Source: Psammoneis japonica
Taxonomy: Eukaryota
Length of the DNA stretch: 64,000 bases
Assembly (NCBI GenBank): GCA_008632985.1
Contig: QPGO01000021.1
Span: 496,001 to 560,000, forward strand
Direction: 5' to 3'
The translations under genes and the position numbers were made by a program. The notes below the pieces were generated by a model, which worked only from the letters and a program-made list of their open reading frames with translations, searched no databases and was not told the DNA's origin. The first letter of the stretch is position 1. Each line of letters opens with the position of its first letter. This document shows, piece after piece, positions 1,292 through 50,296 of this stretch.

Positions 1292-1868
1292 TCACACGGT
1301 CGTGCGTTTCGTATTTTACGTTTTGGCCGGCGGAAAGTTGCTCGGTCATACCTGTTTCACTATGTGGATTTGAAGGAAAGGCGTGGAGAGAATGATGTAG
1401 CTATTTATTCCTCTCATCTTTTTCATGCGGCTGGCTTGGTTTGAAACCTTGTCGCCACCCGCTGCTTGACTGTCATTGTTGACAACCCAAAGCACTTTAG
1501 TTATACCCGAAAGTGTGTTGTCACTGTCTAGCAGCTCGTGTACCGGTACATTATTTGATAACGACGGAATAGCGACCGCATTTACCCCTCTTGTAAACTC
1601 GTACTTCCTTATGTTCTCTACGAAACTCGAGCGCTTGTTTAGTTTTCAGTTTTGGAGGGAAAATTGTGACGAGCTTCGGCGTAGGATTAAAAATAACCGT
1701 TCGTGAAGGTTTCAATGTTCCCTGAAAAGTGCGGCAAAATTTTTGTCAAAGAAAAACTGGCGGCAACGCGGCAACCGTTGAGTGAGCACATCCCGTCCAT
1801 GCACCTCGCCTGGCGATCTCCAATCACATCCCTTAGTCTCACTCTTCTTAGTAGTAGTAGCAGATACC

Positions 1869-2767
1869 ATGACGTCCTTGCTGCAAGTCGAACACGAGCA
1901 GCAGCTGTTCCAAAAATCGCTGAAATGGGGACTTTGTGCCTCTGTTTTGTTTCTTTCTGGAACAATCATTGTTGTTCCCTCCGTGTTGTGCGAGATGAAT
2001 CACCGCGTGGCGGAGAACACAAGCAGCAGTCAACGATGCGAAACCATTGCCTCCGTTCTCGCCTTTGTTGGCTGTGCACTCAAGACAGCATCCGTTGTTG
2101 TTGAAATTGTGGTTGATGTCAAACTCAAGCGTCCTGTGGAACACGGGCGACATTGCCATTCTCGGCAATTGACGGATGGAAATCTGACATTGTCAGCATT
2201 GGTCCTGACGGCCATGTTCTTTCAAGGCTTGTACTTTACAATTCGATCCACTGATTGCGGACAAATGCACGACAAGTCTTGGAGTGCATTGAATTTGGCG
2301 GCGAGTTTTGTGTGGCCAGCTTCAGGCTTTCTCATGGTGAAGCATTGCTGTTCGTGCATTCGCCCACATTGCACATTGTCACAACGGCGACACTCGCTGT
2401 CGCAGGATTGAAAATTTTCCAATGCCCCAGTGAGCATCCAACTCTTCACTTGGTTGCATCATGGTCATTTGTTCTGGTCGGAGTGCTCTACGTGATTGCA
2501 GACATTTGGCGTTTTCGCATGGATCCAAAGGAGTTGAACACAAATCCAACAGAACTCGCCAATGATGTCTTGGCACAGTGTGCACAAAGGATGTTGTGCC
2601 ACATGGAAACGAAGACTGAAGCACAATGGTCGACCTTTCACAAAGCAGCAGTGAACGCACTGCCGCAGCGCGGAAACTTGTCGCACGAAACTTTTCATGC
2701 AATGCACACCCTTGCACTCGACTGCAAGGCCCAACACCTGGACCAATGTCCAGTTTCGTGTGGGTGA
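1869..2767 (+). pseudogene. Degraded multi-pass membrane protein gene inside a TpA-depleted block
   Basis: Hydrophobic helices are split across frameshifted ORFs 1782..2411 and 2255..2767. There is almost no Tyr and an excess of Cys/His. No TA occurs at 1870-2231. Confidence 0.45.
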
Positions 2768-3780
2768 GCTAAAGAACATGTTTAGGTGTGCATCTCTTCA
2801 CACTTTTTCTGATGGTGATTTTGTGTGGTGCAGCGGCCATTGGAAGAAACTGGACGAATGCCGAGTTGTCTCCATTGCATTTTCCGTTTCCTGCCCTCTG
2901 TCATTGCATTTTGCAGTCATTGTTGCAAACACCCAGTTACGGATTTTGATGTCATTGTTCCAAATTGGCACAATGGAAAGACACACACCCAACATTGAGA
3001 GACAGACGAAGCATGATTCACTGATGCCAAACACGGCAGATTTGGTTGAGGGACTCACAAGCAGTCGCACACTTTTGAACTTCCTTTCGATCCACTGCAT
3101 GCCATGATGCTGTTTCAGTTTCACTGTTTGTCATGAGAAACTTTGCACTTTTCCATTGTTTCTGATCCCTGGCCTCTGTGTGGGCCTGCTTCAAATCAGC
3201 AGCTTTCTTGTTGAAAAAATGACGACCTCCACCATTTTTTGTTGGATTTGTGGTTGTTGTCACAACCATTGCAGAAACTGTGCCAAGGCTCTGTGTGAGA
3301 TTTTCTTCATCTGGCCACACACCTTGTTCCAGTGCTTGGTGTGCTTCTCTTCTTGCTCTCTCCCCGCGAAAACGCAAAGGCGCAGGCTGCTTCAAAATTT
3401 GTGGGGGGAAGTGGCTTTTCCATCAAGGGATTTTCAGTTGGTCACTGTCTTGATTTCCCTCACTTGCTTTCCCTCACTTCCTTTTGATCCAATGCATGCC
3501 AGTGGCCATCTCAGTTTTGATTGTTGCCTGGGAAACAGTGCCCCAAAACACACGACCTCTGGAGCGTGTGATGATGAAGAAACGCTGAGCAGGAGTCACA
3601 CGATTCAAACCCCAGCAGAAGCGCATGAGTTGCAGGTGCAGTGAGTCTTCATCCAGCATGTGAAAACCCAGCAATCACATGCTTTTAAACTAAGCACAGA
3701 GACAGACTGAACAAAAGCGCTGTCAGTCGTCTTGGCACATGTGCGCATGATGTGATGTACGGCATGAGTTGTGATGAACG
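1870..3780. other. TpA-depleted, TG/CA-enriched block 1
   Basis: About 10 TA in 1.9 kb by eye, against 4-9 per 240 bp in sampled neighbouring genes. Confidence 0.85.
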
Positions 3781-12747: not shown

Positions 12748-12833
12748 TCTTTCTCAAACGCTTGTTGCTTCTTCCCTCTACTCCTATTTCGGTTGTCGTT
12801 ATCATCGACCCATCACCCATCAACCTACCGGTA

Positions 12834-14450
12834 CCGCGTCGGTCCGCCTCATCTCGTTTGTCGTCGTGTCTGCGTGCGCGATTGTGCGGTTGCTTCTTGG
12901 GTGTGTGCGCTGCATGCTGCATGCATTGGTCACATCACGCACAACCAGGCAGTTGCTTGGCAGACTCAAAAGCAGAAAGCAAGGTTGTTTCTGATGTGCA
13001 CAAAAAGCTTTGGTGTTCTGCTGCTTTGCAGCAAAAGGATGGCTGAGCCTCTGCCAGCTGCAACTGCCCCGCCCTGCCTTGCCTCTTTGTCAGAAGAGTT
13101 GAGAGTCAGCCACAAAGGAGAGGGGCTCTCTCTTTCGTTGTTCTTTCTCAGGCCTGGCTTGTTGACCGAGTGTGGAAACGCATGCTTGAGCATTGATGCA
13201 CAATGTGCTTTCTTTTGAACACTTCTTCCTCTCACTTCTTGGCCCAGCCAGAAACACACAACCACTGCTCCTGTTGTTTGGCGCGCCAAGGGCAAGCGGC
13301 ACAATGTCATGAAAGATGCAAAACCAAGAGCGGCAAGAAGGCAATGATGGCACAGAGGGAGGTGTGGTGTGTGTGTGACACAACCTTGCTTTTCCATCTG
13401 ATGCTGGCTGGCATGTCCAGCTCCATTGACCACCAGGTTTTTTGTTGTTGAGACCCTCGCTCAGTTTGTGGCTCTTGTGTGTCTCGTGTGCAGTGTTGGC
13501 TGTCTTTCCTTTTGCAAAATGAAAGCAAAGAGCTTCTTTGGCATTTTGAGGCAATGGCATGTTGACTTTCTGAAAAGCCATTTTTAAAAAGCAAAGCCAA
13601 CTCTGGGTGACATCAGGTGAAGTGCAGCGTGCAGCCTGTCAGTCTCTCAGCCTGTTCCTGGTGCTGTCTCTCTGTGCTGTGTGGAGCCACGGCATGTTGA
13701 AGCCAAACCAGCCACTGCTGAAGTCTCTTGGCCTGCTGTTTGTGCACTGTTTTGCCATGAATTGGTGCTGAGCTGGCTGCCACTGAAGTCTCTCAGCTCG
13801 TTGTCACTTGCTGTGTGAGCTGCAAGCTGCTGCTGGGCCAGATGCTGCGAAAACAAGCTGCGCGCTTTTTGTTCGGTCTTTCACACAGCGTGCTCTCCTG
13901 CCAGAGTGTTTCCAATGCAAGCTGTCTTAACTGTTTGCTGCAAAAATCTGCAGAAAAACTCAGCACAGCAGAGTGTTTGCTGTGCCCCCGGTGCAAAGCG
14001 AGAGCTTGTGGGGCTGGTGCCGGTGTGCTCTCCAGACAAAAAAAGGGTTTTCACAGTTGCTGTGTGGTCTTGCATGGCAATGGAGATTGAGCTCCATTGC
14101 AAATTGTTTGCCAAGTCAGGGGATGTCCAAGTCTTCCCCTTGCGCTTTGCTTTTTCACAGACACGCTTTTCAGCGTGGGGCTGGCTGCTTTCTTTCATCG
14201 AAGCAATGTCTGTCAGTTCTCTGAGTGGCACCCTCGCTGTCACATTTTTCCCACCCACTCCAGTCAGCCAGGACATCATGACCCGCTTTGCCTTCAGACA
14301 TTGTTCAACCCCTGGTTTGCTTGGTTTCTGCAAAATGAGCGAAAAATTCTTCAGGCAGCAAAAAGAACTTCAGTGAGGACTCCAACCCCGCGCCTCTTGT
14401 CTTCGCAAGAACAAAAAGCACAACGCGCGTTGTGCAACTCTTAGTCGCGT
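12834..14450. other. TpA-depleted, TG/CA-enriched block 2 (degenerate sequence, probable repeat relic)
   Basis: Only about 3 TA seen (13585, 13928, 14442). ORFs lack Tyr and are rich in Cys/His/Gln. Confidence 0.85.
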
Positions 14451-15062
14451 TCGTCCAGTGTGCTGTCACTCTGAAACACAGTCGTTTCTACCCAAGCAAA
14501 GTCGGTGCGTGTTGGAAAACAACAACACCATGATGTTCGACAACAGCAAAAAGAACAACACCCGGGATTCCAACGTGGTCCCCCACCGTAGTACTAACCG
14601 GGCCAGAAGATGCTTAACTTCGCTGAGCAGACGGGAAGCGGTGCTGTCATCTTTGTATGGTCGTTCCTGCCTTAAGTAGCGATAAATAAATATATAAACA
14701 CTGAAATTGACATCTGTACGTAACTCCAATCTCTTCCGCGACATCTACTGCCACACTGACAGAAGGAGAGCTCTTTAACTCCTTACTAAGTTAAAGGAAA
14801 ATATGCATTGAATCAACTTCCCAAAAGTAGAGCTCTAGAGTCTAGCAGTAGTGAGCAGCAGGTAATGACGCTGCCTTTCCTCAACATTTCGTTTGTCCGC
14901 CTATAGAGTGCTGGTAGCTAGGTAGAGCTGCTGCTAGCCAGGTATGCTCGAGAGTCCCTCAGCTCAATGCGCCAGCATGCTAAATTCATACAGTCATTCG
15001 AGAGTGTCTGCATCTAGAAATTGTTATTAAAGGTCATCTAATGTTTACCTTGCATTTATCTA

Positions 15063-21320: not shown

Positions 21321-21366
21321 AATTTAGAACTGAGTATTTCAATACAGTATTGGATAGTGTTATTAT

Positions 21367-22279
21367 TTAGCAAATCTTTTTCTCGCCGTCCCCTTCGTCA
21401 CCCGACAATGACGCCGCCGGCACGAGCAAGTGGGCATCGTCGTGTTCCACAACATTTTCTAGGAAAACGTCGGTAGCTCTATCATTTCGATTCTTTCTAG
21501 TGTGAATCACAAACACACTAATGGCACCCATCAAGACGACACACGCTCCAACAATGGGTCCCACCACGACGACCGCGACAGAATCATTTTGTTGTTGTTG
21601 TGTTGTTGTGATTGTTGATATTCGGGTGTGTTGAGAATTTCACAACGAGCGCCAGTGTATTCCGGAGGACACCGACAACCCAAATGCCTGGATTTAAAAA
21701 AAATAGATAAACAGCATAGCGCAAAGTTGAGAAGGCGCTTTCACCAGAGATACTCGTCGAAACAGACTCGGTCGTGTGTTCTACTCACTGAAATGGCAAA
21801 TCGGCCTTGTCGGCGGGTGGCGGTATGACTGTAGCACCGTGTATTAGATTGAGACACTTGCCTCCGTGCGTACAGTAGGATTGAATAGAGTCAATGGTAG
21901 TACCACCCTCGCTTTGTGGAATGTATGGGTAACAGTAACTTGTTGCCGGTCGTTTGCATTGTCGGCCTGCAAAATACGACATTTTGTAGGCAGCTAAGCA
22001 TTCGCAATCGTCCGACGACTCGCAGCGTTCTTGACAAGTCATGCCGGTCCAACCTGTCGGACAGTCACAAAATTCCATCATGTTGTCATTGGCAATATCT
22101 AATTGAAGCTCGTGTTCTGTCTCGTGCATGGTTCGCCAACATGAACCCCCATTGTGGCATTGCAATGCGCACGCGTGCTGTTCAAACAGAAATGCACTTG
22201 CTAACGTGACTGACGATAACAACAAGACTATCAAAGTCAAGAACCGATCTAATAAGGAGCACTTCCGAGTCGTCGCCAT
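21367..22279 (-). CDS. EGF-like domain type I membrane protein
   Basis: Signal peptide, EGF motifs CHNGGSC..CDCPTGWTGMTC and CTHGGKC..CRCPPEYTGARC, and a C-terminal transmembrane helix. Intron at about 21688-21788. Confidence 0.8.
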
Positions 22280-22427
22280 GGTTCAGATTATCCTGTCGAC
22301 TGTTTCTGGAGCTCGCGAGCCGTGGTGGGTCTCATTTTGTTGGTTGGCTCACTTTTTTCGCGGCCGGACTCAAACGCACGATTCACCCCGCGCAAAAAAG
22401 CGCGGCAAACCACTCCGACACTAATTG

Positions 22428-22558
22428 TATATTCAATGAGGAATGTTGTACATACCAAGAAAAGTGTTCCAGACACTTAGTAATGAGTCGTGTAAAACGA
22501 ACCTACTATCCAATGTATGCACTTTTCTTGGTATGTACAACATTCCTCATTGAATATA
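22428..22558. mobile_element. Miniature inverted-repeat element, 131 bp, with a perfect 39-bp inverted repeat ending in TA on both sides
   Basis: 22428-22466 (TATATTCAATGAGGAATGTTGTACATACCAAGAAAAGTG) is the exact reverse complement of 22520-22558. The terminal TA fits a Tc1/mariner-type TSD. Confidence 0.7.
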
Positions 22559-23439
22559 TCAATTCACATATGACGTTATGGGGTGTAACCGACAATGAGT
22601 GTGCCTCCCAAAAGCAACGTTGTGAGATGATTACACCACACGAAAGACATCCCCCCATGACATGATACGTCGTACTCTAGTATCACCAACCTAATGATTC
22701 GTTCTTAGCCGCGTTGGTTTCACAACGACGAGAAAGCGCCGTGTTCTTTATTTGCTCTCGATGGTGCTTCGAGTGCAAGTGTTCACAGGCACGCGCACGC
22801 TTGAATAAATCCCTTACGCCCATAATCAGATAATCAGACAGACCTTTTTTCCTTTGGTCACTGATGCGTTCAGCAAGCAATGATGATGCAGCAAGGAAGG
22901 TTTTCGTTTTTACCGGCAGGCAGCAGTAGCGTTGCAACAGCAATCACGATCGTCCCGCGACTACATACAGCCGAGTCTTGCTTATTTCCCCAAGACTCAT
23001 CACAAAGAAACTTCGGCATGTATAAAACTCAATAGGAAAAAACGCGACCTCTCTTCGTTCCGCGAGGTTAAATCTTCAGAATGAAGTCGCCCAAGCCTCC
23101 TCACAAAATGAAAACAAAACAAACAAAAAGGAATTATATCTTATCCTACCTTTGACACCTAGAGTGAGTACAAGTCAGTGCAGCATGGCGTTCCAATAAG
23201 AATTCTTCGTATCCTGCTGTTGACTGACCAGCGGATTGACCATGTTTGTTTTGTCTTGCATGACACAGCTAGAACAATGGAGCTATTGCTTGCGCCTCCT
23301 GTTGTCACATTTTCTCTTGCAAGAAAGTTCGAGTATTCGCAGTTGCACACCCGAAGCCTTGGTGTTGCTGATGCCGAAACCGCAACTGCCGTCGTCTTTT
23401 TGGAAAACTTTGAAGATACGAATCAGGTTTCACTGTAGG

Positions 23440-24205
23440 AACATAATCATGGAGACTATAGCGTTGAACCCGGGTGGCCCGAACACTGGTCACAATCGGA
23501 ACAAATGTGGAAGTTTGAAGAAGATGGCAAAGTTCGAAGCATAGCCAAACCCAACGAATGCTGGATTGTCGATGACGAATCCCAACTCCAGTTAACAAAC
23601 TGTGATCGAGCATCGGGAGACCGTGCCAAGTTCCACGTTGAAACCGTCAACAGCAAGCTTCTGCTAGTTCGAATCTTGGTTGGCGAATCACATCGTTTGA
23701 GGTTGGATCAAAATGTGTACTGTACGTTGCTGAGGATGAATGTCCAATTGCTGATGGCTACCTGTGGACGCGGACGGAGGTCAAGTACTTCAACATTTAT
23801 GGCATTGACAATGGATGCATCGTTCCCGACTATCCGACCGATGCAGTTTCCTTCGCTACATGCGACTACCCTTTGGACTCAAGCATTATTTCTCAATGGT
23901 GGCAAGAAAGCTATTACGGCTTGATCCACTCTCGCGTCGATCCCCTCAAATGTCTGCAAGCTGGCTATAGCGGCGAAATAAAGGAATCCAAAATGAGATT
24001 AAGCCATTGCACTGGCGAGGCCAATCAGCAGTTTGAGGATCTTTCGGTGTCGAATGTCATAACGCTGAAAAACGGTAATTTTGTTGCAGTTGCTGAAAAT
24101 GAAAATGGCAAACCAGTAAAGGATGTATCCAAGATTGTTATCAAGGACCGAGAACATCTTGACGACGAAGACAGAGTCCACAGCTGGACTGTAAGTTACG
24201 TGTGA
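23440..24205 (+). CDS. Ricin-B (beta-trefoil) lectin-like protein, frameshifted; 5' end unresolved
   Basis: QxW/QxF repeats with paired Cys: EQMWKF...NECW...LTNC and SQWW...LKCLQ...LSHC...NQQF. Confidence 0.5.
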
Positions 24206-24394
24206 AATGGTCCAAACTAACAGTTCAATGCAACATCCGTTTCTTAATCTCTACTACAATTTTTAAGTATCAAATCACCGTTCTCCATAGTTTGACCGAG
24301 AATAGTCTACAGCAGAGAGAACAAGCGCAACAAATACAACAAGCTCTACGACTGGGTAATGGAAAAACTTCATCGATGCTGGTTGTGTCTCTTT

Positions 24395-24885
24395 TCAAAA
24401 TTGCTTGACAGTATCAACAATAACACTGATCGCCAAGGGGGTGATTCCGAATGCCCAAATAACAGCCAGAATTGCATCCTTCTTCTTCAACTGTGTATAG
24501 TCAATCTTGGGTGCTCCTTTCTTTTCGGCGTTCTTCTGGTACGCCCAGTCCATGGCATTGTTGAGCTTGGCATCCATGTTTCCCGTTGCCTCGGCCCGGC
24601 TAACTCCAGCGGTAGCCATGTATTTTGAGAACCGCCTGCTCATATTCATCTGCATTCGTCAGCCGAGTGAAAAAGGGGGAAGGACCGTGTCGAAGCAAAG
24701 AACCGATTGGATCATAAGGATAAACACCATCGTCGTCGGGGGCTTTTTCCCACCGTTCCGTTTGCTTGTCGAACGTGGGCTTGCGGGCAAAAAGTGGCGA
24801 CGACTTGCTGCCGCTGAACCTGCTTTGAGGAGCAAACGCAGCCACCGAGGCGCAAAGAATAGAAAGCAAGAGGGACACGCATCAT
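24395..24885 (-). CDS. Small plastid-targeted membrane protein of unknown function (apparent indels near 24620 and 24872)
   Basis: Signal peptide followed by ASVAAFAP cleavage motif. ORFs 24600..24878 and 24395..24655 join at YEQAVLK/YMATAG. C-terminal transmembrane helix. Confidence 0.75.
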
Positions 24886-25180
24886 CGTTGTGGCAAATTT
24901 CTGTCTTGTTCTGTCCACAGATAGTAGCAACAACAAAAACTGTGCTATCTTGCGTCGTCATTGTCACAACGCAACATCCACGGTGCGACGGCGGATGACG
25001 TGTTCACTTTCTCCGGTTCATTCCCGAAACAAGACTGGATTCGCGACTCAAAAGTTCCCTCCGACCCCTTTGTTGAGACCCAATGCCGCACATGCCACGA
25101 CAAAACCGCCCAGGCTTAAGTGGCGAGACAACTTCCAACTTCAGGTCGAAAGCATTGGGCTTGTGGAGTCAAATAAGGTG
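24845..25180 (+). repeat. Dispersed direct repeat, copy A (5' end and upstream region of the plastid-targeted gene)
   Basis: Shares AAAGAATAGAAAGCAAGAG, GATGACGTGTTCACTTT, GACTCAAAAGTTCCCTCCGACCC and AAGTGGCGAGACAACTTCCAACTTCAGGTC with 38200-38617. Confidence 0.9.
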
Positions 25181-25189
25181 TGGCGCTCA

Positions 25190-28100
25190 CAATCTCCTTT
25201 GCAAAAAAACGTCATGCCTCGAGGAGCTGCAAGAGTGTGTTGAGTGATCAAAATGATTTTTGGCAGCACAGCAAACAATGTGAGCAGACGTTGTTGTCCC
25301 TGACAGATGACAGGGTGTTTGCAGGAAGATCTCTCTGGTTCTTTCACACCAGCAGCACACTGAAAACTCTGGCAGTGCTGGGGAGCAAGGGCGCCCAACG
25401 ATGGCACAAAAACAGACAAAAAGGCAGGGCGCACACATGCACCCAGACTGCGTGCGCACAACTCCTTGACACTCAGTTTCTGGGCTGTGCAGATCACACA
25501 CAGAGTTTGGCACCAGCTGAAGATTCTTCCTGCTGCCTCCTCCTGGCCACAGAGAGGGGCCCACTTGAGGCTGCTTTCCTGCGCAGCTTCCACATTGCTG
25601 GGTTGAAGTTGTCTTGTGTGGCTCTTTGTGCCAGCCACTGGTGGCGCAGGCATCACCACAACAGAGCACAGTGCAGTGCCTGTTGCACACACCAGCATCC
25701 TCTTCAGACCAGCATGCCCCACAACCCAGCATCTTCTGTGCTGCAGAACAATCTGTTTCAAGAAATTGGTGTGTGTGTGCAAAAGTTCTGCACACACACG
25801 CACTTTTTTGCTGCATGGTGGCCTTGAAGGTGCCCAAGAGCTTTCTTGTGGATGCTGCTGCTGCCAGCAGCAAGTGCTGTGGACAGACATTGAATTCCTA
25901 AAAAAGACAGACAACATCAATGTTGGAGGCCACATGCCTGGCATTTGATTGGATTGCTTCATTCTCAGTGAACCAGTCAGCACAACCCCCAGAGTGTTTG
26001 GGGTGCTTCTTCAAGCAATGATCTGTGATGCCCTTTTCAGTCCAAGGCACCCCAGCAGAACATCATTTCAAGGGTCAAATCCCACATGTGGTCAACACTG
26101 TCCTCTTGCATGTTGCCCTTTGTGAACTCTTGACTCACTGTGAATGAAGCTGATGCTTCAGAACCCCCCAACAGCTCAAAAGCTGTCAACTGATCATTGA
26201 CCATCTTTTTCAACATGACCAGCAAAAAATGATGGAAATGTCCCTCATTGCATCAAAAGTGGCCAGAGTGCCAGTTGCATGGACAGCAGCCCAATGATGT
26301 TTGACTTCCAACAACTCTTTTTTGCTGGGACAAAAAGCAACAAAGTGTGGCAAGACTTGGCCCAACATTGAGGCTGTCCTGCTTCAATCTGGCATTCTTT
26401 AATGGCATTGAAGGCTGGTGCATCTGATGGGGGGGTTGCCCTCAGATGACAGAAGCAAGCTGTGGAATTGCTTCTTGAGCAGCAGGACACTGTGACAACA
26501 TGCAAGCACTGGCAGAAGAGAAAATGAGACAATCTCTCAAGAGATCTGATCAAGTCAGCCAAAAAGGTCTCACGAAAATCCACAAATCTACAAATCAGAG
26601 CAGACAAACTGGCACCCTCCTCTGATCTGCTGCATCTGTCCAAACAATGCAGGCAGGTCACAGACAACAGACAGTGTGCACAACAATGTGCCAGGAGGAA
26701 GGAAGCCTTCCAGAGGCAAGGTTGCAGACCAGACACAACAAAACAGAAAGGTCAGGCCAAACACAAAAACAATGTGGGGCAGCAACACAGATGCAAGGAG
26801 GCATCATTGACAAAAAACATTGTTTGAAGCATCCCACCATCATCTGGAGTGCATGGCAGGCCAAGAGCTTTGTTTGTGATGCCAGCGCCAGTGTTGATGA
26901 TGCAAGGGACACATCACAGGACAATGTGACCAGTGCCTTTTTTTTTGTCTTGTTGAGAGCAGAATGTTGACACGGCACAAGTGCCCAGTCAGGATGCAGT
27001 TTTGTCTCAGCCAGTGATGTTGGTTGTGAGATTGTTGTCAATGTGACTGAGCCTTGTGCTGATGAAAGGGAGACAGTGGCACCAGCCAGCACACATCCAC
27101 AGCCAGCAGCTGGAGGAGGGGATGGATTGGCATGACAAGTTCACTGAGTGGACACAAAAAGGCAAGGTCAGATCTCAGCCCAGCCTCTTGCAGTTGATGT
27201 CCCAGCACTTGACAAAATTTGAGTGCTTGGCTGTGCCTTGCACCTTTTTAAAGTGAAGCAGTGGGTGGGAGCAGGTGCACATGAAAATTTGGACTGGGCC
27301 ACAACAACAACTCAGCAAGCAAGTTCTGACAGCTGAAGCCACAGGACTCAGCCAACTTGTCACATTCTTGCAAGTCTTCATCAGGGCCAACTTCAGAGCA
27401 CATTGCAGGCACCCAAGTCAACAGGCAGCAGAGCACCCCTGCAGTCTTGAGCAGGTTTGGTGGCAGCAGGAGTCTCCCACCCATGTGGTGCGAGCACAAA
27501 ATGGATGCAGCCATGGTGACATGCAATCAAAATTGAGTTGTCACATTGACAAGCATTGATCCATGCCATTGAACTCAGTGTGCAAACCAAGGCACTTGAT
27601 GAAGGCAAGTCTTTGGATGGCAGTTGAAGTGCTCCAGCACCAAGCAGCTCAAAATCTTGGTTGCAGCAACAGGTTTGGCTGGCAGAGAACTTTCATGTCA
27701 GCTCAAGAGCAGGCATGCTTGTCATGACCCATGCTTTGAAATGGCAAGATTGCATCTGGCAAGACACCATCAGCACCCTGCTCCTGCAGGAAACTGCGAG
27801 CTGGATCATGACCTTGAAGAGCCCAGTGCATTTGCAACCAACCAAGTTGATTGTGCGTGCACATGCAAGAACACCAAGGTTTTGACATTTTTTGCTGAGT
27901 TTCTCCCTCGTGGAAAGCCACACAATTTTTGCACTGGAACTCAACTCACAAAAATGCATTCTCAATTGTCACAACTTGTTCCCCATTGATGCAAGGTGCC
28001 ATGCTGCATTGATCATTGACCACACTGCCTTTGGAATGTTCTCCCACTCATTGCAGCAGCACTGTGAGTGGAAAGACTCCAAAACAAAAGAGTCCGGGTC

Positions 28101-31100
28101 TTTTAGACGACCAAGCAGAAAAATGGAAGAAAGTGGCCAAGCAATGCAGGAGATGCAGAAAGAGCAGCATGGATGAAGTGCACATGCTGCAAGCAGCAGC
28201 AGCAGGAGAGTTGGAGGATGACACAGCACAGGCAAAACATGTGGATGTGTGTTTTGTGCTGAATGCATGACAACTCTCCATGGTGTGCAAGGCTGTGCTC
28301 CACTGGAGTGTCCGTGTTGCTGGAACAAGCACAAGAAAAGGTGCTGGGTGACATCAATGCAGCAATTGCACATTGGCAGATGTCATCAGAAGGAAGTCAA
28401 AGCCTCAGAACCAGCAATGTTCCTGCCTGTTAATTTGGCAGTTGACCTGCTCAATTGGCCAATTTGGCATCCCACAAAACAGTGCAGTGAACTGCAAATG
28501 TTTTGATGATGGTTTGCCATGATGATGACTCAGATTCAGCAAGTCCACAGTCAAGGTGCAAAGTGCTTTGTTCATGTCTTCCCATGTCACCAGCAACCAA
28601 ACTCACAGAAAAAATGAAGAAGCTTTGTGGGCTGTTTTGTCAAGCTGCATGGACCTGTCACAATGGGCGCTGCAAACACCAACATTGTCTTGCCTTCAGA
28701 GCTGCCTCCGTCAGCAACAACAACAAGTCCTGAACATTTTTTCCAGTGCACATGGAAAGTTGAGTTGCTGCTTTTCTGATTGTCGACAGGGAAGTTCAGC
28801 ATTGAAAACAAGGAAGGAACACACAGTGCAAGTGAACAAATGTCCCTCTTTGCAGCAAAAGAGCTCATGATTTGAAACACCACCCACCAACCAACTCTTC
28901 TTCAGCAAGTGACAGGCAACCATCTTGAAATGCACCGTGAGTCACACATCAAGTCAAGCAATTGCCATCAAAAATTTGTTTTTCTGCAAGTGAATCACAT
29001 CTCTCAATCTTGGAAAGTGCAAGCTGGTGCGTGCTGCATTGCTGAAATGGTGGGACATGATGGAGGCAACTTGTGGGCTCCTTGCAGTCTTCTTTGACAA
29101 CCTCTGGTTTTGGGCACAATGAGCAAGTGCTGGACATCTGCAAACTGCTGTCATTGCAGCGCAAAGGTTTTGACAAGGAAATGGTTGATGCAGGTTTGCC
29201 AAAGCATCCTGCCGGGGTTTGCAATGTGAGCAATCCATTGTCATGACCTTGGTCAGATTGCCGTTTGATTCATTCATGGTGTGCACCCCAACACTTCATG
29301 CCTGGTTCCACAAGCATGCTGTGCTCTCTCATTGCTTGTTTGATCACATTGAAATGATGCTTGAATTGGAGTCAGAATTTCCAACTGTGGACAAATGGCA
29401 TGAATTGCCAAGTGACACATCTTCAAATGAAGATGTCATCCATGGGCTGTTGATTCCAGCTGAAACTGGCAATGCCAAGATTGTGAATGTTGAGCTTGAG
29501 GACACAAGTGAAGCAACGGCAGAGTCAGAGGATCTAGAACACACAATTGACATCAACCTCAATGACTGCAACCCCAACTTGGATGATCTGTCCCAGGACT
29601 GCGGGTCAACATGGGGAACAAGGGCTTTGCACAGCATCAATGACCTGAAGTTGGAGGTGCCTTGGATGCATGATCTGGGCAGTGCAAGGACAACACGACA
29701 GCTTCATTGATGTGGACTTCATCTCAGGGAGAAGGCTTTGCAGCCATGCTGTGACAAGCTTGTGGAGGATTCTGAAAGCTCTGGCAACAGCGCAGACAAC
29801 ACTCTCCAACATCCATCATGCACATGACTGTGGGATTGCATTGGGCCAAGATTGGGTGCCTGCATTTGCTTTGTTGAAACAGAGAGGTGAGGAACCAAAT
29901 GAATTCAAAAAGCACAATGCACACAATGGATCAATGTGCACAGAAATGATGTTTGTAAAGAAAATGAAAGGTGTTGTGTTGGCAGATGCATTTGCATGGC
30001 ATGTGACATCTCATTTTTGAAAGTCAGAAAAAGCTCAAGACTTCATTTTGTTCCTGTTGGACCCAACACAGTCACAAGCTGAATTTGCTGAAGCCAATGT
30101 TGCACTCATTCTTGGGGCAGCATGATGGAAAGCAGCTGGGGCCCCAACATGCTGGTGGCAAATGCAGGCAAGGTCTCTCCCATTGATGTTGCAGGCTTCA
30201 TGATTGAGCGGGTGTTTCTGGCCCTGCTGGACACATGATCAATGGATGTCCCAGGCATGATTTGAGACTCAAAACAAAATGGACCATGGCATGGTGCAGA
30301 CCCCAAGCTGTGTTAAAAAGCACGCAAGTGCGTGTGCCTTGATGTTGTTTGCCACAACACATGCCTGTTTGATGCTGTTGCCAGGTTGCTCCTCTGCTGG
30401 CATCCTGGTGCTTTCTTCTTAAATCCTTCTTGGCAGCTCAGGCGAGATTGGCCCAGCTTCTGTGTTCCTCTTCCTGATGCTCATGGCCCAGTCTGTGCCA
30501 TGCTTGCACCTTCTCCACACTCAAATGCCAGTTGAGTGCTGGCAACCATGTTTTTTGTTTTTCCCTTGCAGGCAACACTTCTTTTCCAAATCCACTGGCA
30601 AGACATTTGGCAAATCAAGAGCAACTGGTGATTTGGGATTGGCCCCAGTGACGCCAACGGCATTGGCATCAGCACCCTTGTTGTCATCAGAATTGGCACC
30701 CTTGTCATGAGTGTCAGCACACTCATGTTGGCACTGTTGGCATCCTTGCTGGCATCAGAGTCCTTTTGTTGCCTGCATCACTGTCCATTGTTTTTCCCAG
30801 ATGATGATGAGGAGTCACCCATTTGCCTTGTCTTTCTCCTCCTGGTTTTCCTGGCCTTGGATTCTTTGTGTCACCCAATGATGTGTTGACGAGCTTCCCA
30901 AAGATGACAACAATGATTGCATGGGCTCATTGGCTGATCATCCCAGCCTTTGGCTTCTTTTCATTGCCCAACGAGGTTGTCCAGCTCCCAGAAGACAATG
31001 ACAATTGCAGCCACACTTGCTTTTTAGAGGAAACAGTGGCAATGCAAGTGAGCCTTTCATCCAATGAACTGATGCTTGACAACACTCATCATTGGTGGCT

Positions 31101-34100
31101 GCTGCGGCTGCCACTGCTGATGTTTTCTTTCTGTGGCTCACTTGTTGCCTTGTGGTGCAGTGAGATGTTGATTGTGTTGTGGGCCTTCTCCAGCAGGAGA
31201 GTCAACAGGCATGTCTTCTCCATCAAATTCCCACACACTGCTTTCAGCATCACTTGTCATGCTCAGTTTTGGGTTTCAAAGGTGAGATGAATCCAGGAGA
31301 GTCAGCAGCAACAATGAAATGTTGCCTGAATCAACAAGATGCAAGAGTGCAGGAAATGACAAATGGCATCTTTGTGAGTTGATTTCCAGTTCAAAAATTG
31401 TGCAGCTTTCAGAAACTCAGCAAAAAATGTTGCAGCCTCTGTTCTCATGTGTGGATGCATGATCAAAGTTTGGTGCAAAAGAATCACACCACACACCACA
31501 CACCACACTGTGGCACCACATCAAAGACCACAAAATCAGGTTTGAACAGTTTTGTTGAACAGTGTGTGTGGGGACCTTTAGGACCACCACGCCACACACT
31601 TTACAACCCATCAAAGCTGCCACAGAGTGAACAACAAAACAGGCACTGCATTGGTTGACCAGTGCAGGGCAAATGATGCAAAGCTGGCACACCAGTGCCG
31701 AAAGATCCATTGCATCATTGCCACAAGCATTGTGCTCCATCAGCTTTTCTCAAGGTGACAACTTTCAAAAGTTCCCAAAGCTTGTTGCTGGGAGGAAATC
31801 AAAGAGAGCTCAAAGCAGCACAGTTGTGTTTAATGCCTGGGCCAAAAAGGTCACCAGGAACCTTGCATTCTGAAAATTTGGTGTCTGGGAAATGGGTGGC
31901 AGCACGACAGCACAAGTTTTCCATGGTGAGTGCAGGGACATGCTCCATTTTTGCCCAGCACCGGTGGTGGCAGAAAAATGTTGTGGCCCACCAAAGCCTG
32001 CTGAAGCTTGCAAAAAAAAACTTTCATTTGGGGGCAAGAGCACAATCTTGAAGTTAGAAGAACCCATTTTGTAGAGCCATTCTTGCAGCTCCACTGAACA
32101 GTCATGACAGACACACCCACACCATCAACAGAGACAATGTGCACACTCATGATCTTGTTCCATGAAGCCTTGAAAGAAGAAAAGAGGCACAAAGCAGAGC
32201 TGATGCTGTGTGGCACCAGAGAGGCATGAACAAGCAGAGCCAATGCTGTGTGATGCCAGAGATGTGTTTGAGAACAAGTTGTCACAGTCAGCTCCAAATC
32301 ACATGCAGAGTCAAGAGGATGACCTTTCGCAGCACAAGACAAAGTCTGTGCAAAAGAGTTGGAAGCCAAGCAAAGCTGGTCAACATCTGCTTCTCTTCAC
32401 TTTCAGCTGGAGTTGGCTTGGCATCATGTGCACATCACAAATGAGGAGCAACATTTGGAGGTGTCTTGTCATGAGACATTTCATTCGTGCCCTTGTCAAG
32501 CTGCACATGCCCAGCAATCTTGGTGCAAGAGGCCCCACAACCATGTGCTGCAAACAGCCAGCTCTCAGCAGTGCTGGAGGACATCTGAGAAAGACACCCT
32601 TGCAAGAACCATTTGAACAAAAGACTGGGCACATTGGTGACCAGGCAAAAGCACTTGCACCCAAACATGACACCCAACCACACACAAAGCATGGAAATCA
32701 TTGGCTTGTCAAACTGCCACAGTCAAGGGAGCTGCATCTTGACCCTTGGATCACATCACATTTTCTTGACAGAGTGCAGCACGTGCCATGTTTGCAGCTG
32801 TTGAGTGGCCAAATTCCACAGGGCTGCTCAACTGAGTGCGCATCCTTTTCTGTTGGGCACATGCCACTGTGAAGTCATCCTCAAAAAGCAAGTTGCCAAA
32901 CTTCAGGCTTGCTGTGCAACACACCACCTTGATCCACAAAAATGTGTGCTTGTCCAGACATTTTGTCAAGTGCTCTTCCAACAACCAAAACAAAGCTGGT
33001 TCAAAGAAGTTGCCTTGGAGAAGCAAGTCACATTGTGTGGCTGTTGAGAAAAGTGACTGCAAGAAAGAGTCCGAAAACCCTTTTGCCACTCAAGCCAAAA
33101 CAGCCTTTGAACAATGACAGGGCCTTTGTGGGGTTGAGTTGGCACCCAAGTTGAGCTGGGGCTGGCAGCCCCCTTCATTTGCTTGGCTCAATGCACACAT
33201 GGGACAAGAACCCAAAGGTTGGGTGCAATGACTGATCTTGCTAAAAGCTCCTTCTGTGCACTCAAGTCACACAAAAGATGGCTGGGAGATGTCCAAGTTG
33301 TTGACACCAGAGATGGCACTTGGCACCTGCCTTGAGAGATTGAGCCATGATGCACCATCCTTGACACAATGCTGAAACAGAGCATTGTGGAGCCTGCAAA
33401 CTTGAAGGATCAACTTGGGTTCTTCAAGAAAAACAGAACCTTCATTTTTGTGATGTGTGCTGATCAGAGTGGCTGTGGCAGCCTTGCATCCTTCAGCAAA
33501 AGTCAGATCATCCTGTTTTTGCTGCACAACTCAGCCATCAAAAGAGCTCCATCTAATTGCAGAAGCGCCAAAGGGCAAGTGAAGCAATTGCCGTTGATCA
33601 CAGCCAGCCTTGTGTGCAATCACATCCTGACTCAAATGAGGGCAATGGCGTGCAATGAACTTGCAGGTGCCAAGAGGATTGAAGAAGTTTAAAGTGCAAC
33701 CTTCACATTCTTTTGGGGGGTTGAGAGCTGTGTTGCTGCCAAGCAAAGCACACTCATCTGTTGGGGCAGACCAAAGCAAAGGATGGCACTGTGCCTGAAA
33801 CAAAACATGCCCAACAGAGTGATTCACAGGAATGCATGAGTGGCCAAAGCCTTGAGGTGCACCACACTTGTCCCCTCAAGAGCTGGCTGCACCTTGAGTG
33901 GACAGGGGCCAGCCACCATCATGATGTCCTGGCAGCAGCGTGGGGGTCAAGTTTGCTGTTGCCAGCAAAAGGTGCGCCAGTGCCCGGCTGAGCACAGCAC
34001 TCATGAGCATCAAAATCAACTGAGTTGGCCAGACAAGAGTCATGATGAGTGTGTTGGATGATGATTGTGAGGGCTGTCTGCAGGTGAAAATTCAAAAAGA

Positions 34101-36370
34101 TGCAAGTGGAGTGTTTGCAGCTGTGTGCCATTCATCCTCCTCAGCAAGTTTGCTGTGGCCCAATTCAAAAAGCTCTTTGCTGACTGCACCAGGGTTGACA
34201 TCAACCCTTTTCCTGGTCAGAGCAAGATGAGTGGGGGTCATCATCAGGTGGGGTGGCAGCACCAGATGGGGCACCAAAGTGCACCCATCTGCTGTCATCC
34301 TGCTGGTGGCATTTGCTGTGTTTTGGTGCTGGAAGGAGAGTGTGGGCTGTGTTGCAGATTTGAAGCCAACTGTTGGACTTGATGAACAGGTTTCAGGTGG
34401 CACAGATCTGTCTGAACCTTTGAGCAGATGTTTTGGTGGACCTTGTTGGAAATTGGAAGTGTGTGCTGAGCTGACAAAAACAAATGTGGAGACCCTCAGC
34501 ATGTGTGGGTTGTTTGTCAAAGCCAGGCAGTTGCAAAACAATGCCTGCCAGCATGCAGCCACAAGAAGACATGACTGTTCACAGGCAGCTTCACTCATCC
34601 AGAGCAACCTTGACATCTTGAAAACTTGTGTCAAGGACACATGACAAAGGAGTTGATTCTCTTTCCATGGCTGAAACATCTGGATCAGCAAGTTTCAGAG
34701 GGCCAAAGGCACCCCTGTGGGGAGTGACAGCATTTGAGAAATTGGAAGGAGGAGCTTCCTCTTGATGGCTGGTGCTGGAGGTGCTTCAATGGTGTTGGTG
34801 CCAGCAGAATGATGGTGTGCACCACCATCATGATGAGGATGACCCCAATTGTGAAAGCAATCAAAAAATGAACAGATGTGATTGAAAGCACCTGGGTGGG
34901 AGGGCCATCTGCCTGACACAAGAAAGCAGACAGTGTCTTGACAATCTCCAGGCTTCAGCACACTTGTGCAACAGAGCAGTTGGCCAGCAGTGCTCATGGG
35001 CAGCCCAAGCAAAAAACTTTGAGTGCTTGACATTCTTGATGAGAAACATCATTTCCCTTGGGTCATCCAAAGTGGAGTCAACGTCAAAGATGTGCATGTG
35101 CAGCTGAAGGAAATCCTTGAAAAACCCAGGCAGCGATCTGCAAGCAAAGATTCCCCCCACCAGAGCAGCCATCAACCATTTTTGCTTCTTTGTCATGAAA
35201 AGCTGGGCAACGATGGTGTGAGATCTGCTTTGCTGTTTTTCTTTGGGCCATTGCTGCAGCATGCTGGTGTGATGGCACAACGACGATGTGCTTGCTGCCA
35301 CTGGGGAGCATTCATCAGAGCATGACAAAAGCTTGTGGGCCATGCTCTGAGCTTCTTTGCAATGAACTCACATTTGTCAGGGGGAAGATCATTGTCCACA
35401 CTGCTGCCAACCAAAAATCCCCAATGGCTGCCATGCTGGTCCAAAATGAATTGCCAGTGAATGGACATGAAAACCAGCATCAGAAGCACAGCACCAGAGG
35501 GTTTTACATCTCCAAGTGCTCAAACTCTGGCAGGTGAATCATCATTGCAAACACATTCAATTTGCAAAGGAGCATCTTGTGACCCAGTGCAAAATTCATT
35601 GCAAAACAACAAGTGCTGCCAGAAAGAGTTTTTAACCAGGTTGCTCACAGGCCAGACAATGCACCGTGCAGCCCACCACAAATGAGTGCATGCTTTGAAA
35701 TGATTGGCCAGGCAGCAACATCAGGCAGCAAAGTCCTGGACAGGAAACTTTTTGCACTGATCAACAAGGAATTTGCAGCTGCTGCCACCAGTGGAGGCAC
35801 AGGTGCTTGCTTGGGTGGGCATGTGAGAGGAAAGAAAACTCACTCTCCAGACCAAACAAGCAAATTTCATCTCCAGATCAAAGTGTGTGTGAGCTGCAGC
35901 AAAACATTTCAATGAGAGGAACATCTCAAGGGTCTTGGAAATTGTGACCTGAAGATTCTTGTGAGTGAGACAAGTCTTGCCCTCTTTTGCTGGTGACACC
36001 ATGTTCAGAGCAGCTGTTTCCATCATTGGTTGAAATGATGAGTCAATGTGATTGTGGTTGCCATTTGGGGGTTGTGGATGGCCAACCCAGTGTTTTTGGA
36101 AACTCTCCTCTGCAAGTCCACAAGTTGTTTCTTTTTCAAACTGCAGCATTGGCAGTCGTCTTTGAGCCATTGCCAGCATCACCAAATCTCCTGGTCTCAG
36201 CCCCACCAAGGCAACGGAATTTCTGAGAAGAGGCCAGGTCGGCTGATTGTTCTTCTTTGACAGGATCGCAAATCTGCCATCCATTTTCTGTTGCCAGCTG
36301 GCTCTCCAGCACCGGCAGGCAGGTGCACCAGACGACTCGGACATGTTGCCACACAGAAGCGGCGTGTTGT
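25190..36370. mobile_element. About 11-kb TpA- and CpG-depleted degenerate block (probable transposon or viral relic, family not identified)
   Basis: About 21 TA in 11 kb, with 0 TA and 9 CG at 25261-25860. Only short, nearly Tyr-free ORFs rich in Cys/His/Trp. The composition is directly visible, while the mobile-element origin is inferred. Confidence 0.55.
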
Positions 36371-36461
36371 GGCGCGGTAATGAGGCACTGGCAGAGTTTA
36401 ACAAGACATTACACCGATCCTTTTCTATAGCTAGCTTCCGATCTGCTGTAGCTGAGTCACG

Positions 36462-38089
36462 TCAAAACTTTCGAAGATCATTTATGATTCTGTCAATTGC
36501 ACGGTGGTCTGACTTGATCACCTCGCGTAAGATTTTCGTCTTGTCTTCGGTCGAGCTCGCAGCAGCATCCAAACAACTGGTTGATCGGTCCGCAAATGGA
36601 TGCTGTCCTGTCACGAGAGTTCGATCAGGAATAAATCCAAACTCTTTGGCGTACAACAATTCGCATACACACCACATTCGACTGTACAGATCTGTCACGG
36701 GATTGCGCACAACGACGAATTGCGACGCGTCCTTGAGAGCCACCACAAATGGTGATTTGTCGATTGCGGAACTAAGCTGATTTTTGATAATCTCTGAATC
36801 TCCCTGTGTTAAGGCTAATGCACAAATCCAAAAGGTAGGTTTCTTGAAATGGTGTCGGAAAGCGCCCAAAAGAGAGCTCACGAAGTCATCAAACGGTTCA
36901 TCCCAGCAGTGGGTCACGAAGGTGTCAGCTTTCAGACCATTTGGGTTTCGTGAAAGAGCATATGAAGTCTCTGATTCCCGACATTTTGGACTGAGAATGT
37001 GCTCGTTTATGTCATGCATTGTCTTGGTTGCCAAGTCATTTCCAAAGTATCGGGTGACCTCATTCCGCAATTCCACCAGCTGATCATAGCTTACACCCCA
37101 CAATTTTGGTTGGTTTTGGGGGAGATTGCTGGCCTCCATAATCAGTTGATGCTCCTCTGCATCTTCAAGAAGTTGAACACAATCCTGTTTATGCCACTCC
37201 TTTGCCTCCTGGAGGGCTGTGAGACCCTTCGTGTTGAGAATTGTCATGTCAGCACCGTTTTCCAGCAAAATGGGTATCACGGAACCTTTCCCATTATAGC
37301 ATGCTTCATGGAGTGGTGTCCAACCGCTGTCATCTTGACAATTAACCCCTGCGCCTTTCTCAAGCAACAGCAGAATTGTGTCTCCATGGCCATGTCGACA
37401 AGCATGGTGGAGACAGGTGGATCCATTCATGTATCGAATGTTTGGATCTTCCCCACCGCTAAGAAGTTGGTGGAGAGAGTCAGTGTCATTCTGTTTGGTA
37501 GCTTCCAATAAACGGTTTTGATTTTGTATTCGAAAATCGTCAAGTTGAAGATTCGGAGCGTGGGCAGTGTTGTCTTGGCTTTGTTGCGATAATGCGCTCC
37601 TTTGTGATTCAACGCGAATGGATTTCTTATTCGGAGCAGACGTATCCTGCGATTTAAAAGCCTCATTCCACGTTTTCACGACTTGATCAGGGCACTGACT
37701 TGGGAAGCATCTGATGCAGATTCCCTTGTGTACATGTTCATTGGTCAAGGTCGCTTCCTTGAGCAATCTAGCTTCGTGTGTCACAACACCACAACCACCA
37801 CAACGCCGCCCCCCCTTCTTCTTTTGCCATCTTCTGTTATGAGTAGTGGAGCAACACTGCCATTTGATACATCAAATCTTCGAATCAGTCTAACCTTTCC
37901 GGATATGTAGTTTCGTTGTGTCATGGCGGAAAAATCGATATCGTAGATTTTCGTCCCAGAGAAGAGCCGGAAAGGATTGCCGTAATTCTTCTGACAAATC
38001 CTTTCAATCTGTTCTGAGGTACTTGCATCATAGTCATACCATTCCTGCCCCTCCGCATGGCAAAGGTAGAATTGCCACACGACCGTCAT
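36462..38089 (-). CDS. WWE domain + ankyrin repeats + C-terminal TIR/HET-like domain protein (frameshift near 37785)
   Basis: WWE: WQFY..EWYDY..IE..YDIDFSAMTQRN..GKVRLIRR. Ankyrin: GSTCLHHAC, GWTPLHEAC, GLTALQEA. C-terminal domain: FVTHCW, FWICALAL, YSRMWCVCEL. Confidence 0.75.
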
Positions 38090-38199
38090 GATTGGCGTAG
38101 AGGTCTGCGCGATGTTGTTTTATTTCCACTTCCCGACAACGGGTTACTGTGCTGTGCGGTACCCAGTGATACTTATTTACTTACTTGCAAACGCAACCA

Positions 38200-38299
38200 C
38201 TGAGGCCAAAGAATAGAAAGCAAGAGAGCACGCATCATCGTTACGGCAAATTCCTGTTTTTTCCTGTTAATCAGCAGCGTAAGAATGTGGCATCAGGTG

Positions 38300-38330
<31 letters not shown>

Positions 38331-38617
38331 TGTGTAGTGTCTATTTTGAGTAGGTTCAGGTATCAGCGTCGTCATTGTTGATCACAACATCATGACCCAA
38401 ACAAAACGGTGACGATGGATGACGTGTTCACTTTTTCCTTTTTCAATCTGGAAATCCCCAAACAAGACTGGATTCACGACTCAAAAGTTCCCTCCGACCC
38501 TGCTCCGACCTGCGTTGCGGCCTAACAACGCCACGACAAAACGGCCCAAGCGGCAAGTGGCGAGACAACTTCCAACTTCAGGTCAATAGCATTGGGTAAA
38601 TGGAGCTAAACAAGGTG
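38200..38617 (+). repeat. Dispersed direct repeat, copy B, containing a (GT)n microsatellite at about 38297-38335
   Basis: Colinear similarity to 24845-25180. Confidence 0.9.
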
Positions 38618-39204
38618 CTTTTGCTATCCCTTATGGAGAAAGTGGTTTTGTGTTGTCTTTCAAGACACAGAACCAAGAGGCTGGAGAGTGTAGTCGTGGT
38701 TCATCACATTGCAGACTGGAGTGAACCAAGCTCAAAGCTTGATGGATAATGCGAAGAAGAAGTGAACGTGTTTCATCCCATTTCAATCTATGTGTCTGAG
38801 ACGCTTGCGGTGGACTTTCTTTCAATGAAAGCGGTGTTCGCATGCTTTGCGAAAGCTTTGCGCAGATTCCATGAGTCCTGAGCCATTGAAATACTCTAGC
38901 GATGCAGCGGACATTTCTAATAAACATTGTTATCAGTGACAGATGATAGGGTATATACGTATACAGCCCAAGTGGTTACTTCGTTTCTGGCACTTGTGAA
39001 TCTTCCTCGACACTTTCGCCAGTGACAACTGAAAACTGGCGATGGGGCGTAAAAACTAATACGGAGGATGAAAGTCGAAAGCCAAACTACACATGAATCC
39101 TTGACGTTTCACCGCTCCAATCTAGTGAAACGATTTCTGAATACGTCTTGGCAGTCTCGACACAACGTCTCTCCATTGGAGACAACGCTTCTGGACTGTG
39201 CAGA

Positions 39205-49836: not shown

Positions 49837-50296
49837 TTCATTGAGTAGGAACGGTGGTATATTTCCTCGAAATAGCAAGCAGAGAGAGATGAGGATCTTT
49901 TCTCATCATCGGCAGTCGCTAATCGAATCTGCAAATCGCCATCGAACATCGATCATGTGGCGCACATCAACTTCAACAATGTTTCGACTTGATGGACTGA
50001 ATTCCAAATTTTGTGACGAAAATGGAAGTGCCTTCATAGAATGACTAGTGACACAATCTATTTATGTCAAAGTGAGAACAACTGACGTTTATCTAAGTAT
50101 TGGAAATGGTAAGGTCATCATGATTAAAAATTATTTAACCCCATGACCGTTGATACCGTATTTCGGATCGCATCGCCCACAAATTATTAGTGCCGATTCG
50201 CCATTGCCGTTCCATTTCCATCGTCCCGCAACTCTTGACTGGCGTTTGAAACGCTATTACGTTGAAGGAGAAGACAATACATTGTTTCTTGTTACG

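Follow-up and report, generated by a model that had tools for sequence, protein, structure and literature searches.

TpA-targeted hypermutation is described, within the literature searched, only for Bigelowiella natans (bioRxiv 10.64898/2026.01.13.699255). In mutation-accumulation lines of B. natans, 231 of the 302 nuclear point mutations fell in two integrated viral regions; 230 of these 231 were A>G or T>C, and all of the GC-biased ones occurred on TpA (Mettrop et al., bioRxiv 10.64898/2026.01.13.699255). The same preprint reports 124 clusters of TpA-poor, CpA+TpG-rich windows in the B. natans genome, a cluster being defined as at least three consecutive 1-kb windows with a Rho TpA of at most 0.43 and a Rho CpA+TpG of at least 1.52. 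The targets are integrated giant-virus and virophage DNA, and its authors propose an ADAT2-like deaminase as the agent, with TadA and ADAT2-ADAT3 as candidates. The words context, flanking, trinucleotide, tetranucleotide, and CpG are absent from the main text of the preprint, while its Figure 2B, which deals with a "specific mutation motif", and its supplements may bear on the flanking bases. Here, we describe three blocks of DNA almost free of TA in a 64-kb stretch of contig QPGO01000021.1 (assembly GCA_008632985.1, positions 496,001 to 560,000 of the forward strand; hereafter the window, with coordinates counted from its first letter). The few TA dinucleotides left in these blocks are concentrated at junctions between a T-run and a following A-run. 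The window is gene-dense and eukaryote-like, with 47% G+C and a single N gap at 16978-17371.

The three TA deserts were located by TA counts in 500-base bins and are named B1, B2, and B3; none of them is assigned to a strand. B3 (24947..36377) is the main block, purged of both TA and CG, and contains 23 TAs in its 11431 bases, with 0-3 TAs per 500 bases. Its deep desert extends over 25175-36377. The observed/expected ratios in B3 are 0.03 for TA, 0.14 for CG, 1.87 for CA, and 1.88 for TG, compared with 0.60, 0.97, 1.19, and 1.22, respectively, outside the blocks. The two small TA-purged blocks are B1 (1866..3685; six TAs; TA 0.05, CA 1.75, TG 1.62, CG 0.62) and B2 (12833..14441; two TAs; TA 0.02, CG 0.44), which share no sequence relation according to self-BLAST. 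The CA and TG ratios thus range from 1.62 to 1.88 across all three blocks, and the loss of CG is partial in B1 and B2. The block limits are sharp, with TA and CG dropping and returning at identical places; at the right edge of B3, 745 bases without TA are followed by seven TAs in 72 bases from 36378. The GC dinucleotide is also raised in the three blocks (observed/expected 1.17, 1.50, and 1.30) compared with 1.00 outside.

The blocks share several features with B. natans as presented in the main text of the preprint, namely TpA to TpG/CpA change on both strands, confinement to discrete regions, and a loss of TpA tied to a gain of CpA+TpG. The cut-offs of the cluster rule are far exceeded by B3 (0.03 and ~1.87), and its 11.4 kb qualifies as a cluster, while B1 and B2, at under 2 kb each, are not counted. 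The TpA frequency of B3, 23/11430 or 0.0020, resembles the value of 0.0018 given in the preprint for its low-TpA gene set. Unlike in B. natans, no viral or transposon gene is recognizable in the blocks, and CpG, which goes unnamed in that main text, is lost here as well. The viral regions of B. natans are described there as part-way purged (3.3% TpA), whereas the present blocks stand at the end point. The genes of the window are mostly long single exons, its domain-bearing open reading frames (ORFs) being uninterrupted over 0.8-2.3 kb, in contrast to an average of 8 introns per gene in B. natans (PMC13746701, Table 1 passage). The best database protein match is only 56% identical. An organism other than B. 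natans is therefore likely.

The composition of B3 can be accounted for almost one for one. When the tetranucleotide counts outside the blocks are scaled to the length of B3, 969 TA and CG are missing and 963 CA and TG are in excess, and the density of pyrimidine-purine (YR) steps is unchanged at 364.7 per 1.5 kb inside and 367.9 outside. The match of loss and gain at constant YR density indicates that transitions turned TA and CG into CA and TG. B3 holds 1267 TG and 1365 CA, balanced and locally mixed, with a TG/CA skew that exceeds +/-0.21 in no 500-base bin and whose sign switches many times along the block; the runs statistic for TG and CA is z=-3.4, and outside controls give +0.85, -3.45, and -4.09. 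Such balance and the lack of strand clustering indicate that both strands were hit, site by site. In the mechanism that we propose, TpA would be changed to TpG or CpA in the manner of a deamination of the A in T-A, on one strand or the other, and in B3 CpG would additionally be changed to TpG or CpA. The blocks are probably DNA in which a regional, dinucleotide-specific transition process ran almost to completion, so that the TAs now present would mostly be true survivors. By analogy with B. natans, a process of the same kind may have made the blocks, with an adenine deaminase as the putative agent.

Fungal repeat-induced point mutation (RIP) likewise is a regional, dinucleotide-specific transition hypermutation; its edges are sharp, and it destroys coding capacity and leaves its mark on base composition. 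Unlike the process considered here, RIP converts CpA to TpA and raises TpA, whereas in B3 the observed/expected ratio of TpA is 0.03 and CpA is enriched. RIP also needs duplicated sequence, and self-BLAST found no second copy of any block within the 64-kb window. RIP was rejected as the process on the gain of TpA, since TpA is nearly absent. Hyperediting of double-stranded RNA by ADAR and editing of retroviral cDNA by APOBEC3 are similar in that A-to-G (or C-to-T) change is governed by neighboring bases, but the substrates of these enzymes are RNA or single-stranded cDNA and the resulting tracts are strand-asymmetric, whereas TG and CA are balanced and interleaved here. In addition, AA is not depleted in B3 (1.16 versus 1.12). 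ADAR-type hyperediting of an RNA intermediate was rejected as well, one-strand A-to-G tracts being at odds with a skew that changes sign repeatedly.

The surviving TAs carry the main result. The original prediction, made from the letters of the window, held that 18 of about 21 TAs in the interval 25899..35634 (no strand) are TTA or TAA, and a full listing and count of TAs agree with it: of 21 TAs, 8 are TTAA, 10 have one T/A flank (a 5' T or a 3' A), and only three have neither (CTAC at 26589, CTAG at 29535, and GTAG at 32072). The examples quoted at 26400, 27249, 30314, and 35633 read as stated. The three TAs named as survivors of the second block (13585, 13928, and 14442) are each TTA on inspection; B2 as delimited here contains two survivors, each of them TTAA, and the next TA is the TTAG at 14442. 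The expectation that roughly half of the TAs would lack this context by chance was off, in the conservative direction, as 63.1% of the 2003 TAs in the window outside the blocks, which serve as background, lack it. The TTA/TAA context is therefore found in 18 of 21 TAs of the interval compared with 36.9% outside (p=5.9e-6), and in 20 of 23 for the whole of B3 (p=1.1e-6). TTAA accounts for nine of the 23 survivors in B3 (at 25117, 26400, 27249, 28431, 30314, 30420, 31831, 33690, and 35633) versus 3.9% outside (p=1.1e-7). When all three blocks are pooled, 26 of 31 survivors are TTA/TAA (p=1e-7) and 11 of 31 are TTAA (p=1.5e-8). B1 and B2 on their own give a weak repeat of the pattern, with six of eight in TTA/TAA context (p=0.033); the B1 survivors comprise four with one T/A flank and two with none.

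The enrichment holds under other nulls as well. With outside DNA that is not in long ORFs as the null, the p values are 7.6e-6 and 1.4e-6; with outside DNA within long ORFs they are 4.8e-6 and 8.3e-7; and with base composition alone they are 3.7e-5 and 8e-6. The proposed comparison of the NTAN spectrum inside the blocks with that of the surrounding window DNA reveals a difference, TTA/TAA and TTAA being enriched, and homopolymer indels, which had been raised as a possible source of the survivors, fail as one because homopolymer length errors cannot create a TA. The context bias of the survivors is correct, statistically strong, and stronger than first estimated.

The degree of sparing can be estimated if outside DNA stands in for the ancestor and the expected sites in B3 are scaled from it. 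VTAB sites, which have no T/A flank, number ~297 expected with 3 survivors (survival 1.0%, minus-log 4.60), sites with one T/A flank number ~155 with 11 survivors (7.1%, minus-log 2.64), and TTAA sites number ~18.5 with 9 survivors (about 48-49%, minus-log 0.72). The minus-log survival is additive, with 2.30 for each ordinary flank and 0.34-0.36 for each protective one (2.30+0.34 for one protective flank, 2x0.36 for two), as expected if each strand or flank took one first-order hit independently of the other. A two-parameter additive fit to all blocks predicts 4.9, 15.2, and 10.9 survivors in the three classes, compared with 5, 15, and 11 seen, and is better than a single rate (p=1e-11). A four-parameter model also improves on the single rate (likelihood ratio, p=4e-14); survival by context in this way rejects drift alone, as the original prediction had suggested.

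The protective context reaches beyond the adjacent base. When the survivors are read on both strands, A is found in 60% at +1, 61% at +2, and 40% at +3, compared with 20%, 26%, and 27% in the background, and T at +1 falls to 2% from 27%. TTTA or TAAA is present in 19 of the 31 survivors versus 12.7% of the background (p=2.7e-10), and in 19 of the 26 T/A-flanked survivors versus 34.4% (p=6.5e-5). ATAN and NTAT contexts, in contrast, are not spared, with a single survivor from ~290 expected ancestral sites, and survival by 3' base follows the order A >> G > C > T. The earlier view that VTAB is preferred and that TA within A/T tracts is spared thus holds for the context dependence itself, with survival of ~1% for VTAB against ~48% for TTAA, but "A/T tracts" is too broad a description, since ATAN and NTAT are lost. 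The spared context is a T-run meeting an A-run, not A/T tracts in general. In the proposed process, a 5' T or a 3' A would each cut the rate about six-fold, the two flanks acting independently and reaching over two to three bases; a TA at the junction of a T-run and an A-run would be nearly refractory, while ATA/TAT, TAC/GTA, and TAG/CTA would be removed.

The same counts bear on the alternative that the purge was complete and the present TAs are new, having arisen by context-biased C-to-T change at TCA (to TTA) and TGA (to TAA) or by changes at T-run/A-run junctions. Raw material for such an origin is plentiful, with 2667 CA/TG sites; a C after a 5' T seems more mutable, judging from the loss of CpG in TCGN (p=0.001); and the three survivors without a T/A flank could well be new. 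When the contexts of CA/TG inside B3 are taken as the null for new TAs made by ordinary transitions, however, 46.6% TTA/TAA and 7.7% TTAA are predicted, compared with the 20 and nine of 23 seen (p=7.3e-5 and 3e-5). A bias towards TC also fails to account for the excess of A at positions +2 and +3 or for the additive spacing of the classes, which is exact, and the TA-destroying activity would have to have stopped. We judge a wholly new origin of the TAs, the main rival explanation, unlikely.

The ancestor itself can be approached through contexts that the process cannot alter, in which the YR step has a pyrimidine before it and a purine after it; the TA share within each context then yields an estimate of survival. 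B3 holds 217 T-YR-A sites (209 expected from the host; estimated survival 0.47), 163 T-YR-G sites (154 expected; 0.22), 146 C-YR-A sites (189 expected; 0.20), and 171 C-YR-G sites (110 expected; 0.035). These counts speak to a further explanation, that the survivors are a random sample from an ancestor very rich in TTAA and in T-run/A-run junctions, for example foreign DNA. Its points of support are that C-YR-G is not at the host average in B3 and that the low ATA/TAT products (0.65 and 0.67) imply a somewhat different ancestral NTAN spectrum. T-YR-A, however, is as frequent as in the host, and the explanation needs ~39% of ancestral TAs to have been TTAA, or ~180 of the 217 T-YR-A sites, compared with 8.9% in the host, which leaves almost no room for the 202 TTGA+TCAA observed. 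B1 and B2, although unrelated in sequence, lean the same way as B3. A TTAA-rich ancestor is accordingly quite improbable.

The reading that a transition process ran nearly to completion has a number of observations weighing against it. C-YR-G is 55% commoner in B3 than outside (p=0.008), so the ancestor was not host-average and the absolute rates carry real uncertainty. Both ATA/TAT products are under-represented, as given above, which makes the apparent total loss of ATA/TAT the most uncertain of the estimates. No ancestral or sister copy was found, and the rates assume that the NTAN make-up of the ancestor was like that of the surroundings. Forward simulations from host-like sequence misfit the product spectrum under every model (chi-square 125-200, 16 classes). 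No mutation is seen in progress, the sole DNA sequencing run that contains the block showing no variant and possibly being the source of the assembly. The foreign-DNA part of the model published for B. natans finds no support in the blocks. A Pfam search of the 85 ORFs of 24296-38975, 78 of which overlap B3, gave inside B3 one sub-threshold match (UL45, 17 bits against a cut-off of 27 bits), and no Pfam family was detected in the six read-through frames of B3 or in the 17 ORFs that lie within B1 and B2 or overlap them. A period-3 signal above 6 occurs in none of the 72 B3 windows versus 48% of coding controls, in a purine/pyrimidine code, which the process leaves intact.

Further searches returned little from within the blocks. 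Three viral-contig scans with the B3 ORFs gave one chance-level match (E=1e-3 among candidates only), one candidate without a locus, and no viral relative, and no terminal repeats of B3 emerged from scans for repeats and tandem repeats. Frame-specific purine bias, which separates real genes poorly in this genome, nominated no B3 ORF. Within B3, just one repeat of notable length was found, an inverted pair of ~85 nt at 27866-27957 and 31366-31449, 3.4 kb apart and 89% and 77% identical in two parts. A DUF6739 protein used as a single query in a metagenome scan gave no match; a DUF6739 alignment query gave 15 metagenome loci with a longest TA-free gap of 541 bases. None of them contains a purged block, but their 70 kb are far too small a sample to judge. 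DUF6739 is mentioned in no paper of the literature searched. The blocks look non-coding. This bears on an explanation by selection, in which TA and CG are avoided since they are read by a nuclease, a TA-targeting transposase, or an RNA sensor, and TTAA/TTTAAA are kept as signals. No observation made here speaks for it. Against it stand the absence of period-3 and of any detected domain, the one-for-one match of TA/CG loss by transition products, which is the mark of mutation, and the fact that a direct mutational process of such a kind has already been measured, as the main text of the preprint reports (bioRxiv 10.64898/2026.01.13.699255). Selection is a very improbable cause of the pattern.

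Contigs of two public sequencing runs, X1 and X2, were compared with the window; no RNA run containing the block was listed. Contigs of one public run, which may be the assembly's own source, cover 24843-28323, 28688-29672, and 29647-36208 with 0 differing letters at a word depth of ~35-37, while X2 contigs give no cover of 24170-36215 and carry no evidence on expression. An artefact would require modified bases (6mA at TA, 5mC at CG) to have been miscalled, or an error of assembly. Systematic miscalling at modified palindromic steps would yield the observed direction of change, with A read as G and C as T on either strand. Contigs with 0 differences at such depth are nevertheless too consistent for miscalling, with the limit that the run is possibly the source of the assembly and so not independent. 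An artefact deserves hardly any credence. The word depth is 51-63 on the left flank (21000-24351) and 27 in one right-flank contig. That B3 could be hemizygous is only a thought, since contig depth is not copy number.

CpG is lost from the same blocks as TpA, over 25175-36377 and also over 13001-14250 and 2751-3750. In the core of B3, 58 CGs are left of ~588 expected. The loss depends on context, TCGN retaining 6 of ~167 expected CpGs and the other contexts 52 of ~421 (p=0.001), and GCGC retains 9 of ~22. CpG decay through deamination of 5-methylcytosine (5mC) is similar in that CG is lost with TG/CA products inside the same block edges, and unlike in that the loss here is biased towards TCG; we know of no such bias as a feature of plain 5mC decay. 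The loss of CpG may be a separate consequence of methylated, silenced chromatin.

The flank order also invites comparison with known adenine deaminases. The 3' preference deduced here is T, C > G >> A. At the 3' side ADAR favors G and disfavors U, an order different from the present one. The natural target of TadA and ADAT2-ADAT3, A34, always follows U33, so that a T-A requirement is built into these enzymes. Eukaryotic ADAT2/3 substrates include anticodons starting with AA (U-A-A); TAA would thus be predicted to react well, yet in the blocks it is the poorest substrate. At the 5' side, ADAR favors U according to the main text of the preprint (bioRxiv 10.64898/2026.01.13.699255). The flank order deduced from the survivors does not look like the preferences of ADAR or ADAT2/3.

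Survivor counts look alike under a rule for the deaminated strand and under a symmetric effect of the duplex, and strand tests on the products help little. The contrast of TTGB+VCAA with VTGA+TCAB gives an excess of 168 versus 135, which is not significant. The most over-represented product class is TGC/GCA (ratio 1.71), and this class together with the GC excess may fit TAC as the favored strand target or else the composition of the ancestor. In simulations, a 3'-neighbor model gives a chi-square of 125, a uniform or symmetric model 154, and a 5'-neighbor model 200, all of them poor fits. In the unalterable contexts, the excess of TTGG+CCAA (24) is smaller than that of CTGA+TCAG (52), which leans opposite to the 3'-neighbor ranking. 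The strand tests, by product contrasts and by simulation, give no clear or consistent answer and do not separate an enzyme pocket from DNA shape.

At the left edge of B3 lies a repeat of ~350 nt (24832..25180, plus strand), with a second copy at 38187..38617 (plus strand) upstream of a WWE-ankyrin gene, the two being 77-87% identical by self-BLAST. In the alignment, their similarity stops near 25180, where the TA desert starts, and the two copies contain too few TA sites to reveal conversions directly. On the right, B3 is bounded by the gene itself, which encodes a WWE domain and ankyrin repeats (36465..38119, minus strand; Pfam Ank_2 1.5e-30, WWE 4.2e-12). The TA content is normal on this side from 36378 on, and the 3' end of the gene faces B3. 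One X2 contig spans 36390-38187 without a skip and ends at 36390 in a loose end with a run of eight T, which would be a poly(A) start on the minus strand. Elsewhere, 101 bases with CT..AC ends (21686-21788) are missing from X2, as they would be from a spliced transcript. There is a hint that B3 stops at a transcript boundary, a few bases from 36377/36378, although an RNA end cannot be proven from contigs. The public runs also contain another form of the WWE-ankyrin gene (36390-38187), which differs by ~8% (146 letters and 22 gaps over a 1911-nt contig); it makes up about half of the summed depth in X1, and X2 holds only this second version, which could be a paralog or a diverged allele. The differences listed between the two copies are mostly at third codon positions, and only 4 of these 40 differences are TA>CA/TG, which is uninformative on the process.

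Beyond the edges of the small blocks, a 5S rRNA gene lies at 14550-14668 (minus strand; Rfam, 100.8 bits), ~110 bases past the right edge of B2. To the right of B1, two arrays at 4026-4208 and 4480-4702 are made of a palindromic CGACAAAATTTGTCG-like unit with periods of 20-41, together with a run of the pentamer CGACA, and are mutually inverted. Farther along the window, two units at 50147-55267 and 56627-60896 each consist of a subtilase gene and, behind it, a long repetitive ORF rich in Pro/Thr (1021 and 887 amino acids; no Pfam family). These units share a short similarity (51343-51610 with 57803-57990), as if a pair of protease and mucin-like genes had been duplicated in tandem.

A completed purge is a natural selection experiment on substrate preference, in which the survivors supply a quantitative rule. 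What is new here is this quantitative substrate rule for an only recently described phenomenon, seen in what is probably a further organism. The rule (additive flanks, each worth about six-fold, with an effect extending over +/-3 bases) is a constraint that every candidate deaminase must meet, and it can be checked against the 231 published B. natans mutations. Tentatively, and with somewhat less than even confidence, the window may document a TpA-specific, adenine-deamination-like process that affects both strands equally in a second eukaryotic lineage, accompanied by CpG erosion, acting on silent non-coding DNA and not just on recognizable viruses, and with a flank rule unlike that of ADAR or ADAT2/3. 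The coupling to CpG loss would link the process to silenced chromatin, and if the organism is not Bigelowiella, the process would be more widespread than one lineage. If true, the agent could be a DNA adenine deaminase not yet described, or other chemistry on duplex DNA could be at work.

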